A stretch of 58,525 nucleotides of DNA, counting the filler, from Basidiobolus ranarum (lineage: Eukaryota): NCBI GenBank assembly GCA_040143965.1. It is 6 parts of 6 records of this genome, joined end to end, with 100 filler letters (N's around TTAATTAATTAA, not from the genome) between each part and the next. Parts side by side here need not be neighbours in the genome. Positions count along the whole stretch, not along the records: positions 19,596 to 29,273 come from JASJQH010007669.1; 5 more parts are not named here. One strand, 5' to 3'. Of the stretch, positions 22,273 through 58,525 are shown in pieces. The position numbers and the translations under genes are program-made. The notes under the pieces were generated by a model that did not search any database, was not told the origin of the DNA, and was given only the letters and a program-made list of their open reading frames with translations. How positions within the stretch are numbered: position 1 is the stretch's first letter; every line of letters starts with the position of its first letter.

Positions 22273-22605
22273 ATGCTTTCTGACAGTTTACTACGTATTG
22301 CTAAATCTTTCAAAATTACCGGACGTACAAAATCATTTCTGAGCAGAACAAAGTCTTCCAGCTCACAAGTTTCCCACGATGATGTATCGTTCGTGGATTC
22401 TTTACTTTCTGATGGTCAGGATCTGAGTAAGTTGGAAGAGCTGCAAATGCTCTTAAACCCACCAAATCTCCAGCGATTCATTGACCAGGATATTGAACTC
22501 ACACCAGAGCTTGAGTTTGAGCTTGATTTAGCCAGGCTCACTGGGCTCATTGAAAAAGGCGCGTTGCACAGACTTGGAGACCAAGAGTATCCTTTGTTTG
22601 CGTGA
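22273..22605 (+). CDS. Small uncharacterised protein, paralog 1 of 4 (two GoLoco-like R-phi-x-x-Q-[DE] repeats)
   Basis: ATG 22273. Shares the block RFIDQDIELTPELEFELDLARLTGLIEKGALHRLGDQE with three other ORFs on this contig. Confidence 0.8.
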   Translation: MLSDSLLRIAKSFKITGRTKSFLSRTKSSSSQVSHDDVSFVDSLLSDGQDLSKLEELQMLLNPPNLQRFIDQDIELTPELEFELDLARLTGLIEKGALHRLGDQEYPLFA

Positions 22606-22957: not shown

Positions 22958-23030
22958 AAAATGAGAACAGAAACCGAAGTTCGGCTGATTTACTCGAGAA
23001 TTTTCACGACATAGTTCATATTATTTTTTT
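22958..23030 (-). ncRNA. Putative Fanzor omegaRNA scaffold (element right end)
   Basis: Directly 3' of the Fanzor stop. Hairpin UCGUGAA-AA-UUCUCGA (22994-23009) and hairpin AGCCG-AACUU-CGGUU (22972-22986) are enclosed by GAAC (23014-23017) / GUUC (22965-22968). The position matches that established for Fanzor omegaRNAs. Confidence 0.55.
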
Positions 23031-24051
23031 AGATGCTTTTAAATTTTGCTTTGTATCGTGACGCCGTATTAGCGAGAAAGATTTGGTTGAATAACAGATT
23101 GGCTACACCCGACAAACCGATTACCAGCGCCAGCGCCAGTGCCGACAAAGTGTCTCTTGGTACAATCGCTTCTTTCTTTGTTACCAGAACACAATTTGGA
23201 TTTCTACATAGAAACGATTCTTTTTGACAGATCATTTTTCCATTTCGTGATCTTACAACCACTGGGTGATTCAGTTTGGAAAAGCAATAATACAAGCTTG
23301 TGAAGCCATGTATACTTGATGCATCCTTGCAATCTTTTCCGATTCAATGAGATAGCTATCGTAGCCAAATACATGGAACGAGTGGGAAACAGCTTTTGAG
23401 GGAACTTGTATATAGTTGCCTGATAGTCAGAAGTTGTATTCATAGAGTCTTGAATTTTCTGAATGATTGTGCTCCTCAAACCTTGATTCCTCCACGAACT
23501 GATTCCACATGACACCATTTCTCTTAGGTGCATTCTTATCCAAGTAGTCACTCAGAAAAGAACGTGTGCAATCAGAAACTTTTGCTACAATAACTATAAA
23601 GACCTCTTGGGAGTGTGTGGTCTTTTGAGTGACTTTTGCTTTAAGTCATTCAGTTTTTTTTCCTAAATTGCTCTTGTTGTCACTTGCTACATTAATCTTT
23701 GATGACATACATAACCGCATAGTTTGCTTGAAGTTAGCTAATAATTTTTCCTCTAAAACAGCTGCAGTACGAGAGCATGTTTTGATGGTGGTGATAGAGT
23801 GAGACCATTCGTCAACAATATCTTTCTCGCGAGATCTATTTCCTTTCGATTTTAAGACAAGTATCATAGTGGTTCTGGCAACATCAAACCTACTTTTTTG
23901 TAGTATTTTTTCTTTTACTCATTAATCGTATAAAAATAGAAGCTATATGTACGAAAAAAGAAAAAGTAAAATGAACTAAAAAAGACAACTTTATATAAAC
24001 GTACTTCGAAATGAAACTCAATTTAGGGGCTATTTCATTGTGGCGACAGTA
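22958..24051 (-). mobile_element. Decayed, internally deleted Fanzor (eukaryotic TnpB-like) element with a Tc1/mariner-type left end
   Basis: The minus strand reads KY/MASQAC-[frameshift]-YCFSKLNHPVVVRSRNGKMICQKESFLCRNPNCVLVTKKEAIVPRDTLSALA..IGLSG. This fits RuvC-II region + CxxC...Cx4C zinc finger + RuvC-III 'RD..SA' of fungal Fanzor1. The left end begins TA-CTGTCGCCACAATGAAATAGCCC (24051-24027), followed by a broken ORF starting MSKRKNTTKK at 23922. Confidence 0.75.
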
Positions 24052-25410
24052 TATCAACTTTGAATGTCAGCTTGAAATAGATTCTCATACATACCGCACA
24101 AATATTCATTATTTTACGAGATCAATGTAATTAAAGTTAGACATATTACGCCGATAGGACCAATCAATCCAATAAAAGTTAAACAAGAACGAACGTAACA
24201 TTAAGACATTATACATCTTGAGTAACAGCGTGAAACCCCTGAAAGAACAAACTTTTTTATTTACTCAAGGAATCGGAGATTAAATCAGCAATAGGCCGGA
24301 TTATTGTATAATAATTAAGAAATCAAGAGCTACCAACCGAAGTAAAACCAAGAGCCATCCTGTCCTCTCCAAAGCTATAAACATCATGCAAACAGGTTGC
24401 CAGATAAAGTAGATATATATTCAGTGAGCACATTCTTGGCGGGTGATTTGTTCCCTAGCCGAATTCTAGTTGAAACATACACTCAGCCTCTGCCTTTATC
24501 CATCCGACTATCTGCTGATTTCGTTATGGAATTGCATTAGCTCCATACATTTCAGAGCATACTCTCTTAATTGGAGTTTCATGGAGATATCAATGTCGCC
24601 TGTATTCATTGATTAAGCAACCCTCCCCTTAAATTGGAGTTCATTCTATCAAAGGAAAGTTACACAGTTGTACATGCCGCTTAGTTGGCCTTGAGCTATG
24701 AGATAACTGTCTTGCATAGGTACACTGTGAAAGCAAACCCAGGCAAATTCGTAAATGGCGTCATAGTATCAATAAGCCACTCCTAGAAACATTCCAGGCA
24801 CGATGCTATGGCACTTAAGCAGCAACATGATATTGAAAGTATTTTACGGGATGAGTTTAATGAATGTTTTCGAAAGATTCATTCGAATATGAAACTAACG
24901 CACAGCATTAATTCGATATTCGTGAGATGAGCTTCATTGACTTCCTGACGGATATTACATTCAGTGCAACAATCCCGAAACCAATTTAATAATACCAAAT
25001 GATTGGCCTGCCTCATCTCTTATATGCCTCTATTTCCGTCAATGAATATAGAACAGCTATACAATCCCTGGATATATAAGTAAACCAATAACATTGGATA
25101 TTTACTTGAAACATCAAATTTACACAGACTCTGGAGGAAACAAACAATGCGCAAGCCCTGGAGTACAGACTCTGAAGCTATGTGTACACGGCAAACGTAC
25201 TGAATACTCATTAAGCCAGTACATCATTAATGCTATTGATCAATCTCTGCTATATTTAGAGAATTCTGAGTTTTCCTCATCCAATAGCTGCACTGTGGAT
25301 ATCAAACTCCTGAAGTAGTTACACCGAAGAGGTTATAAAGTATCAGACACCTCTCTGGTTGAAGTCAAAAAGCAAAGTCTACTGTTAAAGCCGTACTTTT
25401 CTGAATAGTC

Positions 25411-25791
25411 ATGAGAATACCTAAAACCAGCATGCCTTCATTCAACTTTCTCTTCAACTTAAAATCACGCAAGGACTTCAGACAACAGAAATCCGATTCC
25501 AGAGATTCTTCTGATTATGCCCCCATCCCAACCTTGGACACCAACAGCTTGAACACTGATTCGACTTTATCCTTCGATTGTGAAGCTGCTGCTGATGATG
25601 AGATGCTCGATGAGATGGAATTATTCTTAGAGCGTACAATCAGAACCCGATATACCGAACAAGATGTTCATCTGAGCCATGTTCAAGAATTCGACCTTGA
25701 GTTGGCCAAACTCACCGGACTTCTGGAAAGAGGTGAGAAGTACCGCCTAGAGGCTCAGGATTGCAACTCAACTGTTTTAAGTAAGATCTAA
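25411..25791 (+). CDS. Small uncharacterised protein, paralog 2 of 4 (likely start ATG 25432)
   Basis: TATAAA at 25334. Core MELFLERTIRTRYTEQDVHLSHVQEFDLELAKLTGLLERGEKYRLEAQD. Close tandem duplicate of 26539-26904. Confidence 0.85.
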   Translation: MRIPKTSMPSFNFLFNLKSRKDFRQQKSDSRDSSDYAPIPTLDTNSLNTDSTLSFDCEAAADDEMLDEMELFLERTIRTRYTEQDVHLSHVQEFDLELAKLTGLLERGEKYRLEAQDCNSTVLSKI

Positions 25792-26538: not shown

Positions 26539-26904
26539 ATGTATCCTTTCAATATCTTCAACAAATCCGAAACTCGCAAGAGCATCAAGCAGCAGAAATC
26601 CAGTATCAGAAACTCTTCTGACTACGCCCCTATCCCAACCTTCGACACCCATAGCTTGAACACTAACTCAACCTTATCACTCGACTCAGCAGTCACTGTT
26701 AGTGCTGAGGTGTTCGATGAGCTGGAGTGTATTTTGGAGCGCACAATCAGAACCCGTTATACCAAACAAGATGTTCATCTGAGTCCCGTTCAAGAATACG
26801 ACCTGGAGTTAGCCAAACTCGCTGGACTTTTGGAAAGAGGAGAAAAGCGCCGCCTGGAGTCTCAGGATTGCAACTCAACTTTGATTAGTAAAATCAAGCT
26901 CTAA
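26539..26904 (+). CDS. Small uncharacterised protein, paralog 3 of 4
   Basis: Aligns end to end with 25411-25791 (SSDYAPIPT, NT.STLS, LERTIRTRYT.QDVHLS, DLELAKL.GLLERGEK.RLE.QDCNST), with many synonymous differences and no frame disruption. Confidence 0.85.
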   Translation: MYPFNIFNKSETRKSIKQQKSSIRNSSDYAPIPTFDTHSLNTNSTLSLDSAVTVSAEVFDELECILERTIRTRYTKQDVHLSPVQEYDLELAKLAGLLERGEKRRLESQDCNSTLISKIKL

Positions 26905-28467: not shown

Positions 28468-28800
28468 TCATGAGAGTACTGAGAAATCTTGGTAGTCGAA
28501 CCGACGCGTCAGCCCACGAGTAAGTAGCGCCGTCAACGCAGCCAATTCCAGCTCGAGCTCCTTCTCCGGGGTCAGTTCCACATCCTGTTCCTTGTAGCGC
28601 TGCAGACCGGGCCGGTCGAACATCCAGGCAAACTCATCCTGGATATCCTGGATGTTTGAAAGAAGTTTCTCGCTGGGTAAAGGTAGCGTCGAACTCGAAT
28701 TCAATTTGGCGAATTTCTCATTTCCATAGTTAGGATGGGATTTGGTGATGAATTTCGGCAAAGATAGAGATTTAAAGACGAGAAACTTTGGGCAGACCAT
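28468..28800 (-). CDS. Small uncharacterised protein, paralog 4 of 4 (inverted)
   Basis: Core FAWMFDRPGLQRYKEQDVELTPEKELELELAALTALLTRGLTRRFDYQD. A minus-strand TATAAA at about 28858-28863 favours ATG 28800 over 28851. Confidence 0.8.
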   Translation of the reverse strand: MVCPKFLVFKSLSLPKFITKSHPNYGNEKFAKLNSSSTLPLPSEKLLSNIQDIQDEFAWMFDRPGLQRYKEQDVELTPEKELELELAALTALLTRGLTRRFDYQDFSVLS

Positions 28801-29273
28801 ATTCCACAAGATGAGTGCGAGACGAAAAATAACTACCATCGGAATCGACATGTACTATTTATACTAAAATTGCTAGTTCAGTCCCCTCACATGATATCAT
28901 TACTCTTATATTATATAGCTTAATATGAAACTAATTCTTGGCCTGTTCAACCTTACACAAACTTTGGGATGATCAGTAGATCAGGATTGGTGTCCGGATT
29001 TGAAGTGTCAAATGAGTGAAACCTAGCATCGGCACTTGTTAGTGGCCAAATTGGTTTCAACTACTAACCGGAAGAGTTGTTGGACGACTAGAGATGATTT
29101 GAAAGCATTCGATGAACTTTCCTCGAATCGAACACTATACAGAGCTCTGAATTAACTCTTCGTAGTAAATGAAATTAGTTGATTGACCTAAACTCAGGCT
29201 TATTTCGATGGTGACGATGTATGCACTCAAGTGTTGAGGTAACTCAGAAATTTGTCGGCAAGCTGTGCCACGT

Positions 29274-48888: not shown

Positions 48889-49590
48889 AACAGATTGAAA
48901 CCGTACCGTGAAAAGATGCCTGGTGCCGATATTGGAGAACTTGCCAAGGCTGCCTACTTCGATCGTATTAATCTCTCGGCCAATGGCTTCTACAAAACAC
49001 CAGATATTGGACACGATTGGGATACGAATGAGGGCTTGATGTACTTCTACTTTACCCTTGGTATAGCTGTCTCTGAAGTGGAAATTGATGTACTTACTGG
49101 TGATCATACAATCATTAGCACGGATATCCTTATGGATATTGGTAAATCACTCAATTACTCAATCGATCTTGGTCAAATAGAAGGCGCATGGCTACAAGGT
49201 GTAGGCTGGTCTACAATGGAGGAAACTCTCTTTTTTCCTAATGGAATGCTCTTTACACGTGGCCCTGGCACATACAAAATCCCTGGTTTCCGTGATATAC
49301 CCCAACGATTCCGCGTTGACTTGTTGGATGGAGTTGAATATAAGCAACTAAAGACCATTCATGGCAGTAAAGGCATTGGTGAACCACCTCTATTCCTTGG
49401 TGCATCTGTATACTTTGCTATACGAGATGCGACAACAGCAGCTCGTAAGGATAATGGAAATACTGAAAAATTCACACTTCCGCACCCGGCTACTGCTGAA
49501 CAAATCCGAATGTCATGTGTCGATCAGATCGCCACTATGTCAAAAATTCAACGCAAAGAAGGAGAGAAACCTTGGGCTGTTCGTGTCTAG
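48889..49590 (+). CDS. XDH: Xanthine dehydrogenase, C-terminal Moco-domain fragment (5'-truncated)
   Basis: SEVEIDVLTGDH, DLGQIEG, RGPGTYKIPG, SKGIGEPPLFLG, PATAEQIRMSC. Clearly diverged paralog of the minus-strand copy. Confidence 0.95.
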   Translation, partial: NRLKPYREKMPGADIGELAKAAYFDRINLSANGFYKTPDIGHDWDTNEGLMYFYFTLGIAVSEVEIDVLTGDHTIISTDILMDIGKSLNYSIDLGQIEGAWLQGVGWSTMEETLFFPNGMLFTRGPGTYKIPGFRDIPQRFRVDLLDGVEYKQLKTIHGSKGIGEPPLFLGASVYFAIRDATTAARKDNGNTEKFTLPHPATAEQIRMSCVDQIATMSKIQRKEGEKPWAVRV

Positions 49591-50118: not shown

Positions 50119-53100
50119 TTACACTCGAATGGCCCAAGGCTTCTCCCCTTCTTTGCGTTCGATCTTAGACAGAGTTGCAATCTCATCCACACACGACATA
50201 CGGATCTGTTCTGCGGTGGCAGGATGAGCAAGTGTAAATGATTCGGTGTTCTCATTGTCTCTACGAGCTGCGCCTACGGCATCCCTAATAGCATAGTAAA
50301 CTGAGGTGCCGAGGAAGAATGGGGGCTCACCAATCCCTTTGCTACCATGAATAGTCTTCAGTTGTTTGTACTCCACTCCATCCAACAGATCAACTCGGAA
50401 GCTTTGAGGGATATCACGGAATCCTGGGATTTTATAGTTACCTGGGCCACGAGTGAATAGCATACCATTCGGGAAAAAGAGGGTTTCCTCCATGGTGGAC
50501 CAACCAGCTCCTTGCAACCAAGCACCCTCGACTTGGCCGAGGTCGATGGAGTAGTTGAGTGATTTGCCAACATCCATAAGAATGTCAGTACTCAATATGG
50601 TGTGATCCCCAGTGAGAACGTCAATCTCCACCTCGGAGACAGCAACACCCAGAGTAAAGTAGAAGAACATCATGCCTTCATTCTTGCCCCAGACATAGCC
50701 AATGTCAGGAGTCTTGTAGTAGCCGTTGGCAGAGAGATTGACACGATCGAAATAGGCAGCCTTGGCAAGTTCCCCAATGTTGGCATCAGGCATCTTCTCG
50801 CGATACGGCTTCAATCTATCAGCTACTTGCTCACATGCTGCTTTCACTGCTTGTCCATTAAGGTCAGAGCCAGCAGAAGCCGCTGTGGGACTAGTGTTGG
50901 CTACAGTGTTGGTGGCCGTTTCATTGATGTAAACCTTCTCCAAAGGTACATTCAGAGTTTCCGCAGCAATTTGAGCCATCTTGGTATGAATGCCTTGTCC
51001 CATCTCAATACCACCATGAGTCAGAAGAATCGAGCCGTCGGTATAGACATGTACAAGTGCTCCCGCTTGGTTTAGATGGTTCACCGTGAAAGAGATACCA
51101 AACTTGGTGGGAATAATGGCAAGACCTCTCTTCTTATGCTTGTGAGCTTTGTTGAAGTCATCAACAGCACGACGTCTAGCATCATATTTGGAGCTTTCTT
51201 TTATCTTGCTCCACATCATAGGGATGTGCCAGTCGATAAGCTCTTGGTGGTAGTGAGTTTTCTGCCCTTCAGTGTACATATTGATCTCACGGAATTTATC
51301 CGACGATATATTGAGCTTTTCAGATATCTCCTGAATCCAGTTTTCACAAATGAGCATACCTTGTGGCCCACCAAAACCCCGGAAAGCTGTATTAGAATGA
51401 ATATTAGTTCTACAAGCCTTCCCTGATACTTCCATATTAGGTATCCAGTAACAATTTTCACTATGAGTAATAGCACGTTCAATAACCGCCAAGGTTAAAT
51501 CGGTTGAGTACCCTGCATTAGCATAGAGATCAAGTTTCAAGGCTTGAAGTTTTCCGTCCTTATTTACCCCAACCTTCCATTTTCCAAGGAATGAATGCCT
51601 TTGGCCAGAAAGCAGCATGTCTTCATCACGATCGAGCATACAACGAATTGGTTTTCCCAAGTGATATGCTGCTACAGCCAAAGGAGCAGAGAGTACTACT
51701 GATCGTGATTCTTTACCTCCGAATCCACCACCTAATCGTTTGGCTCTAACTACTACTCTATTTTGTGGGTAATCTAAAACTTGGGCGATAATTTTTTGGG
51801 TTTCTGTTAGGTTTTGAGTACTACTGAAAACCTCTATCTCATTGTCCTCTTTTGGAACAACAAGGCAGGCGTTAGTCTCAAGGTAGAAGTGCTCCTGTCC
51901 TCCAACTTTACTTTCCCCCTCATAGATTAAGTCACAATTCTCAAATCCCTTTTGGACATCCCCACGAGCTAATTGGCGTACATCAGGGATATATGACTCT
52001 TTCTCAATTGCCTCCTCGATAGTAAGGATGTGGGGCAGTTCTTCATAGTCAACTGTGACCATTCTAGCTGCCGCTTGTGCTTCGTTTTGAGTCTTGGCGA
52101 CAATGATTCCGATGATTTGTCCTACGAAGAACACCTCATCACTAGCGAAGATCTCTTCATCATGTATTACCGGCCCCCAAGTATTGGATCCAGGAACATC
52201 CTTAGCTGAGTAGAAACCCACCACCCCCTCAGACTCCAACGCATTCGTAGAATCAATTCTCCGGATCTTGGCGTTTGCTTTCTTGGAGGGGTCCATAGCG
52301 CCGTATAACTCACCACTGTATGATGGCATATCATCCACATAGATGGCTTCGCCAGTCACCTGCTTAAGTGCACTCAAATGGGCCACCCCCTTTCCGACTA
52401 CACTCTCAGGACGGGATGGCATCGACTGTGAAGCCTGGGAGACCTCTCTTTCGATATCCTCCACCTCATCAGCAATCTTTGCTTCTTCAGTGTCAAGACC
52501 AAGCTTGTTCGACACGTTACACCAGAACTTGTAGAAGAAACTGGCTGCAAGGGCCTTACGATACTCCGCCATTCCACCTGGAGACGAGTACTGGATGGGG
52601 AGATCAAAGTTAAGTCTCTTGACTACCTCCAAGAAGTCCTCCCTATATCCCCACTCTTTCCCTGTGATATACTCCATGGCTGACTGGGCCTGCAACGTGG
52701 TAGGACCCATTCCGCCGAATGCAAACACTGCATCTGTGACCAAGAGTTTATCATCCTTCTTCTCCAACTTCACTCGAAGTCCTCCATTGGCGATGGCAAT
52801 GTCATCGTCTTTTCTTTTGGCTTGTTTGAAAGCTTGAGTATACTCGTGCTCACCTGTGAATGGGATGAACAATGAGACCACTACTTCTCCTGGACGGAGA
52901 GCGGTCTTGCGGTAACCAAGGAAGAATTCTGTCATCTTGATAGAGCGTAGACCACCTTCCTTCGATCCAATGACCATGACTGCTCGTGAGGCAACGAAGA
53001 CAGGATTGAGATCGGAAATAGGCGATGCTGTGACAATGTTTCCACCGATCGTACCAACGTTACGGATCTGACGGCCTGCAAACCAGCGCAAATTACTGAG

Positions 53101-53732
53101 ATATGCTTTGAAGTTCTCAGTCTTTGATGGCTCATACTCCTTCACCGCTTGCTTGAGTACTCTCTCAAAGCTGGATAGAGTGATATTAGCTCCAAATGTA
53201 ATCCCCTCTTCACTGTACTCTACTTTCTTCAACTCCTCGATGTCACTCACATAAATCATCACTGGATAGTAGATCTGCTTGAATTTGGTCTCAATCCCAA
53301 CTTCAGTATTACCAGCGACAATTTTTGCATCAGGATATTCAGCTTTGAGTTGAAGAAGCTCTTCAAGCTCAAGGGGACGATACCATTTGTACTTGTTATT
53401 TGAGAAGGCCAATGGCTTGAATCCACTTTCATTCTCTTTCTCGCCACGGGCGTACTTCATGAGGCCTGGTGGGAATATGATCTCTTGGGAAGGATCGTAC
53501 TTCTTGATCTGAACTTTCTCGAACTTGTCGTTGTCAACGGCAAAATTCAGCTTGTCATCGTACGCTTGCTTATCCTGACAGCATCCCCCTTCTCTCCCGC
53601 ATCCTTTTGTCGTGACTTCCACCTCCTTTTTCTCTGCTTCTTCCTCCTGACAGCAGGATCAAGATTTTGCAGAACAACGCGAGAGCCATTGACGTAAAAT
53701 GTAAGAGCGGTGGAGTAGCGTTGTACGGACAT
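50119..53732 (-). pseudogene. XDH: Xanthine dehydrogenase with both [2Fe-2S] domains deleted and a resulting frameshift; FAD and Moco domains still open for 1167 codons
   Basis: ATG 53732 gives [26 protein letters not shown], which joins the linker CCQEEEAEKKEVEV out of frame at 53656-53654. Downstream GNTEVG, FAGRQIRN, GGGFGGKES, AFRGFGGPQG and GIGEPP are intact. Confidence 0.8.
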
Positions 53733-57785: not shown

Positions 57786-58525
57786 ATGTCCGTTCAAAGC
57801 TATTCCAACACTCTTACATTTTACGTCAATGGCTCTCGCGTTGTTCTGCAAAATCCTGATCCTGAGATGACACTGCTCCAGTATCTCCGCAGCACCGGTC
57901 TTACTGGTACCAAACTCGGTTGTGGTGAAGGTGGCTGCGGTAAGTTTACACAGAATTCATAATCTAAATCAAGTGCAATTCAAATTCAAACAGATTCACC
58001 GTTGCTAATCCTATATTTTTCGCTTGATTTTGCGATTCATTTTCGAATGGTCACTAGGTGCTTGCACATTGCTAGTCTCTTCCTATGATCCCAAGACGAG
58101 AAAAATCTCTCACACATCTACCAACGCATGCTTAGCACCACTGTGCGCAATGGATGGCAAACATGTCATCACCATTGAGGGCATAGGAAACTCCAAGAAT
58201 CCTCATCCTGTTCAGGAAAGAATCGCCTTTGCTCATGGCTCACAGTGCGGTTTCTGCACACCAGGAATCGCTATGTCCCTCTATGCATTGCTGAGAAATA
58301 ACCCCAACCCAACTGAACACGATATTGAGGAGGCATTTGATGGGAACTTATGTCGGTGCACTGGCTACAGACCTATCCTGGACGCAGCCAAAACCTTTGC
58401 TGTGCCATCCGGTGGTTGTTGTGGTGGCAAGAAAGCTGGTGGGGGCTGGTTTCAGGAGGAAGAAGCAGATAAAAAGGAGGTGAAAGTCACGACAAATGTA
58501 TGCGGGTGAGAAGGGGGAAGCTGTC
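57786..58525 (+). CDS. XDH: Xanthine dehydrogenase, N-terminal [2Fe-2S] domains, 3'-truncated by contig end; intron 57940-58057
   Basis: FYVNG...[24 protein letters not shown]...NACL...[11 protein letters not shown]...[12 protein letters not shown]. Confidence 0.95.

Follow-up and report, generated by a model that had tools for sequence, protein, structure and literature searches.

The closest described relatives of the sequence reported here are the Fanzor1 elements ROr-4 (Rhizopus oryzae), PBl-3 (Phycomyces blakesleeanus) and MCi-4 (Mucor circinelloides), which were published by Bao and Jurka in 2013 (PMC3627910). These elements are 4.5-5.2 kb long, with genes for proteins of 1165-1245 aa, terminal inverted repeats (TIRs) of 31-42 bp and target-site duplications (TSDs) of 9 bp, and their imperfect TIRs resemble those of confirmed MuDR elements. 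The group motifs also occur in MCi-4 to MCi-7, and rows of Supplementary Table 1 of Saito et al. (PMC10432273) label similar-looking Mucorales proteins FZ1. The closest solved structure by profile is SpuFz1 (PDB 8gkh, 9ceu-9cez), which together with PpFz1 (PDB 9cf0, 9cf1) is also the closest by the fold of a relative. A literature search for Fanzor together with Basidiobolus returned no paper. We find that a stretch of the Basidiobolus ranarum genome is very probably a dead, internally deleted copy of a transposon family whose large Fanzor1 gene belongs to the ROr-4/PBl-3/MCi-4 type. The protein group is one already known since 2013, and there is no Mariner/TA signature at the relic. What the relic adds is Basidiobolus as a former host of that group.

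The window, by which we mean the whole stretch of 58,525 nucleotides that was analysed, consists of six contigs joined by spacers. The relic lies on the minus strand of contig G000:C7669, between two of four small paralogous ORFs, and alignment to other copies in the genome gives it a span of about 24258-22999 (-), or ~1.26 kb. The original prediction had set the limits at 24051-22958, which is wrong at both ends, and had taken TA-CTGTCGCC at 24051 as the start of the element. This motif is internal, since it falls within a stretch (24142-23695) over which the C7799 copy is 77% identical; it has no inverted partner at the 3' end, and sequence common to three other copies extends to ~24258, where four left ends align. 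The features are as follows.

24259..24269 (-): left copy of the flanking direct repeat, a candidate target-site duplication of 8-11 bp; 10/11 identical to 22998-22988, 8 exact, null p ~0.001
24215..24258 (-): left end of the element, common to C7715, C7950 and C1221
24251-24238 (-): acceptor-like pyrimidine tract and CAG in the left end
24235-24215 (-): left arm of the imperfect inverted repeat; inverted match of 20/22 to the right end of C647
23923..24214 (-): upstream non-coding part, including TA-CTGTCGCC; aligned to C7799 across 24051
23433..23922 (-): N-terminal coding remains, with a frameshift after the first codons and stops
23315..23458 (-): mid-gene piece, before the RuvC domain; DNA match to C8672
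23314..23315 (-): internal deletion junction (~435 codons), where the C8672 match stops and the C647/C7063 match starts
23072..23314 (-): C-terminal remnant with zinc finger and the RuvC-III RD at 23157-23152; profile E 9e-20
22999..23071 (-): decayed 3' end, the expected omegaRNA region; aligned to C647, C7715, C7950, C8672 and C7453
22988..22998 (-): right copy of the flanking direct repeat
22273-22605 (+), 25411-25791 (+), 26539-26904 (+) and 28468-28851 (-): four small paralogous ORFs of 110-127 aa with a C-terminal motif

The microprotein cluster in which the relic had been said to lie is real. The C-terminal motif of its four ORFs is ~55 aa long and 38-67% identical among them; no Pfam family matched them, and for one there was no usable Atlas match. 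Elsewhere the window contains what we take to be xanthine dehydrogenase-like genes at 48916-49590 (+), 50119-53460 (-) and 58150-58509 (+), two of which stand tail to tail and are 78% alike.

The assignment to Fanzor passes through relatives, because the window fragment alone matched no Pfam TnpB family, no solved Fanzor structure and no longer homolog (0 of 370 candidates). The fragment does match five other places in the genome, including a better-kept gene on C7102 whose protein has a database entry as a hypothetical protein of Basidiobolus ranarum. The frame of this gene matched 420 library proteins at E <=0.001, and the named relatives among the 20 that were looked up come from Basidiobolus (1), Mucorales and, with one protein, Mortierellales. 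A profile of this Mucoromycota protein family, built from 37 of the best 150 of the 420 proteins, matches the window at 23289-23029 (-) with an E-value of 9e-20, the next best place in the window having an E-value of 3.1. The same profile matches SpuFz1 (8gkh) at E 3.8e-5 across RuvC-II, the zinc finger and RuvC-III. PpFz1 was not matched by the family sequence profile, and single-sequence PDB searches with the relatives missed Fanzor, which was found by profile and by fold only. By fold, the AlphaFold model of P0020, a relative of 713 aa (pLDDT 76.7), has chains of PpFz1 and SpuFz1 as its six best Foldseek matches (E 2e-6 to 2e-5), at low TM-scores of 0.16-0.35 and 12-14% identity, and Atlas places P0020 near Cas12f1-like TNB clusters. 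A search for longer homologs of the C7102 N-terminus found none among 3738 candidates. With the family profile on the window, the profile match to SpuFz1 and the fold matches of the relative, the Fanzor call holds. The resemblance of the C-terminus to Mucorales proteins, which had been put forward earlier, was also found: its best matches are the Rhizopus microsporus KAL4211382.1 cluster (59% identical over 73 aa) and Helicostylum pulchrum KAI9273552.1 (53% over 73 aa).

The coding remains described earlier are present, with some corrections to their reading. The broken ORF MSKRKNTTKK starts at 23922 and runs into a stop after ten codons, and the frame common to the C7799 copy is the neighbouring one, not that of MSKRKNTTKK. 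This N-terminal piece (23922-23433) scores higher than any other place in the window against an N-terminal profile of four sequences, if weakly (domain E 0.022). At the other end of the gene SQAC and YCFSKLNHP..CRNPNC..PRDTLSALA..IGLSG are split by a one-base shift near 23291, which divides the first cysteine pair of the C4 zinc finger; the second pair is intact and the RD of RuvC-III follows. The duplication reported near this place exists at 23139-23128, but its size is 12 bp, or four residues, rather than 6 bp.

What lies between these pieces is mostly lost. The frame of C8672, which matches the middle piece (23458-23315), maps to residues 93-188 of P0020. In P0020 numbering the middle piece lies before about residue 163 and the C-terminal piece does not begin until about residue 598, so that ~435 codons are gone. 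P0020 has the RuvC-I motif GTDNG at 394 and the RuvC-II glutamate at 597. The deletion at 23315/23314 removes RuvC-I with its aspartate, the lack of which had rightly been noted, together with the RuvC-II glutamate; the latter, in a rearranged position about six residues before the zinc finger, falls at the junction, where the window reads V. The copy is therefore dead, as had been thought from its frameshifts and stops, among other signs. The RuvC-I aspartate is retained in the family copies C7715 and C7052, the RuvC-II glutamate in C647 and in relatives, and the RuvC-III aspartate in the window, so the three catalytic positions survive separately across copies. Given the length of the published proteins (1165-1245 aa), we infer a second large loss between the N-terminal and middle pieces. 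Additionally, ~80 bp are missing at 23072/23071, and the hairpin, the donor-like site and the right arm of the inverted repeat are damaged, this arm being partly deleted.

Eleven loci in the genome share DNA and ends of this family, with local matches that are 67-90% identical, which agrees with a transposable element in several copies. Each retains different pieces, and none of the ten copies other than the window's is whole. The searches turned up no intact gene, every match in the genome being a fragment with a longest open frame of 279 aa, which in a fragmented assembly of 13,754 contigs is a lower bound. The suggestion that an intact family exists or existed in this genome holds for the past, since it follows from the relics; for the present no such family was seen in these searches. 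Searches with the end patterns gave no new copies beyond chance-level extras. In the C647 copy a separate repeat (L010, 2224-2546) is inserted, which also occurs on C8084 and C8672.

Two further families of the same group are present. One is the gene on C7102 (L034, 2402-5418), which is near full length, has frameshifts and apparently lacks the RuvC-I stretch; just downstream of it is what we assume to be a GATA-type zinc-finger gene. The other consists of L089 (C8160) and L049 (C10525), which are 80-86% identical over ~2 kb and are both broken. A PF07282 search of the genome returned 13 places (L021-L033), none of which overlaps the family of the relic and which are probably other Fanzor groups.

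The relationships of these sequences were examined in an unrooted tree of 59 C-terminal rows, which were drawn from 169 stored proteins by a motif filter except for six chosen by hand. The window, C647 and C7950 form one clade (98/93), which has Helicostylum and Rhizopus microsporus proteins as its neighbours (92/85 and 90/80), and the five rows from the Basidiobolus genome fall in three separate places. Such a tree would fit more than one acquisition from Mucorales, and equally an old diversity that was later lost in part. Given that the window row fills only 49% of the columns, that the tree is unrooted and that an Atlas cluster with a similar structure consists mainly of Zoopagomycota, we treat transfer from Mucorales as a possibility.

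The 3' ends of the relatives, where the omegaRNA is expected, have signals of another kind. An 8-bp hairpin is present in C647 and C7715, the whole regions of which fold with z-scores of -1.9 and -0.9, and Rfam gave no match in five loci. Of 14 relatives (12 metagenome loci, C7102 and C8160, the last being the one miss), 13 have a donor-like G|GT in the interval that runs from 1 base ahead of the stop to 30 bases past it, compared with 6.8% of random 51-base windows; the motif sets were picked after viewing the data and the loci stand for about eight lineages, and an initial count using a different motif set found 10/13. Six of 18 metagenome loci were excluded, five without a usable 3' end and one a near-duplicate. 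Also excluded, because they had been located through the donor-like site, were the four copies of the relic's own family that have it; the window, C7799 and C8672 are without it. G|GTAAG at or just after the stop is often accompanied by branch-like and acceptor-like signals. Loci L106-L109 and C7102 (L034, 5416-5540) have two regularly spaced donor-plus-branch-like modules and a shared ending TACC..CAG-TA; in L106-L109 the first branch-like site is at +31 to +34, the second donor at +78 to +89, the second branch-like site at +113 to +125 and the final CAG at +168 to +176. In L107 and L109 no acceptor follows the first branch site. The modules might represent introns of a nested or recursive kind within the omegaRNA region. 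In five other loci (L114-L116, L119 and L120) an intron-like stretch 3' of the stop lies between ATATG and the complementary CCATAT, the splicing of which would join a short hairpin, with an inconsistent gain in energy.

Published elements have similar sites. As far as the accessible text of PMC3627910 goes, one follows the coding end in ROr-4, PBl-3, MCi-4, MCi-6 and MCi-10 and none does so in MCi-5, 7, 8 and 9. The published ROr-4 protein ends exactly at the donor-like site, which suggests that its authors spliced there. These observations led us to a speculative reading, which we think rather unlikely. The omegaRNA region of this Fanzor1 group would carry signals that the spliceosome uses (a donor at the stop codon, two donor-plus-branch modules in some members, and at the right end or close to it an acceptor), splicing by the host would build or destroy the omegaRNA, and the Basidiobolus family, which may derive from Mucorales, would keep the fossil of this arrangement. 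A structure built by splicing is unsupported, since folding the spliced RNA with the best acceptor per locus gave no consistent gain and mostly stayed within the control range. The donor-like motif may be a plain scaffold motif, because the two Parasitella omegaRNAs that Saito et al. (PMC10432273) recovered from yeast still contain AGGTAAG in unspliced form, and a conserved last intron can be ordinary. In the open-access literature that was searched, no Fanzor omegaRNA is described as having a spliceosomal intron. The relic is of little weight alone, being no source of a working nuclease or of a TAM, and the splice-like signals of its relatives are the only lead with more promise. If they are used, guide RNA design must account for splicing, and host splicing would be a point at which a eukaryotic RNA-guided nuclease is controlled; this would be a eukaryotic counterpart of the bacterial IStron conflict.

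How the element came to its present place is best approached from its ends. C647 and C7715 have the inner 22 bp once more, inverted, at their right ends, and in C7715 the inverted repeat extends to ~45 bp at ~60% match around a better-matched inner core. When the left end was fixed from the alignment and random pairs were used as the null, the direct repeat of the window copy (24269-24259/22998-22988, 10/11) was equalled by 4 of 3000 random pairs. C7715 has a repeat of 10/12 (p 0.018), and C7950 has none (p 0.46), so direct repeats flank two of the three two-ended copies. The original prediction had assumed a Tc1/mariner-type element carrying the same dead gene and inserted at a TA starting at 24051. 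Mariner-borne Fanzor1s do occur in Mucorales, according to PMC3627910, several relatives (L106-L109 and C7102) apparently have CAG and then TA at their end, and the inner inverted-repeat arm begins with CTGT, so that an ancestral TA-CTGT..ACAG-TA unit can be imagined. However, none of the three two-ended copies has TA on both sides, position 24051 lies inside sequence shared with other copies, as described above, and the family protein carries the motifs of ROr-4/PBl-3/MCi-4, with their MuDR-type ends, and not those of the Mariner-borne ROr-1, ROr-2 and MCi-1. We regard a Tc1/mariner carrier as very unlikely. Placement by a non-DDE route, through copying during break repair or through rolling-circle events at one end, is a better candidate, though still an improbable one. 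It would give variable duplications of 8-13 bp, as in MCi-2 or CRe-1 to 3, and the best-scoring repeats here are indeed 11 and 12 bp rather than 9 bp; MCi-2 has duplications of 11-12 bp and the CRe elements of 7-19 bp. Yet the window copy and C7715 retain both ends with an inverted repeat where MCi-2 has no TIRs, the long CRe duplications accompany 5' truncation, and a 9-bp reading fits too (8/9 and 7/9).

We therefore return to the preferred reading of a deleted ROr-4-type element. From the published relatives (PMC3627910), the ancestor would have been a non-autonomous element of ~4.5-5 kb with imperfect TIRs and without a transposase of its own. A cut-and-paste transposase would have moved it in trans and made the flanking direct repeat, with the MuDR type as the most likely source, at roughly an even chance. 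The window copy showed no transposase frame. A MULE search across the genome returned no candidate, and neither this search nor those with the end patterns gave a MuDR partner. By analogy with characterised Fanzor1s (PMC10432273 and PMC13565253), the protein would have bound an omegaRNA from the 3' end of the element and, under the restorative-homing model of the same papers, would have cut empty donor sites and so helped to restore the element. Guided cutting is put conditionally because this large-protein group is absent from the nine fungal rows of the Saito et al. assay table. The family would then have died out, leaving a window copy that makes neither nuclease nor normal omegaRNA. A last alternative has the dead locus still functional, with its 3' end giving an omegaRNA or the relic regulating the neighbouring small genes. 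Ghost loci of Spizellomyces with working omegaRNAs (PMC10432273) offer a precedent and both ends survive in the window copy, but the loss of ~80 bp in the 3' region, its disrupted hairpin and partly deleted right arm, a window 3' fold of z -0.64, and the lack in the genome of an intact group protein to load an omegaRNA make this hardly credible.

Some smaller observations concern the same ends. The TAM, which was to be deduced from the left flanks, could not be, because the four flanks share nothing firm. Helitron2-type ends were set aside because, judged by eye, the right arm is not followed by a terminal hairpin and the element has a flanking repeat. TCCGA occurs 12-21 bp outside the four left ends, in C7715 inside the direct repeat, and might mark a longer end. 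All four left ends have the acceptor-like pyrimidine tract with CAG|G (24251-24238 (-) in the window), one of them reading CAG|T, and this signal could splice host transcripts into the element.

Compared with known systems, the nearest proteins by sequence are the Rhizopus microsporus cluster and the Helicostylum pulchrum protein, which are fragments without described ends and come from a different phylum, Basidiobolus being placed outside Mucoromycota. SpuFz1 and PpFz1 resemble the family in having a glutamate just before the zinc finger and RD after it; the identity to them in structural alignment is only 12-14%, and they are active, with an IDP-type RuvC-I in related proteins, whereas the window copy is dead. 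A hairpin followed by AGGTAA is shared by the better-kept family copies and the two Parasitella omegaRNAs given by Saito et al. The closest comparison is with ROr-4, with PBl-3 and with MCi-4. From these the window copy differs in its length of 1.26 kb, its loss of RuvC-I and RuvC-II, its flanking repeat, which may be anything from 8 to 11 bp, and its host. By eye it is like them in the GTDNG of RuvC-I (in the family), IGD.G, the T.E..S.TC..C zinc finger and RD..SALAIGL, as well as in similar N-terminal motifs, short imperfect inverted repeats and no transposase seen.
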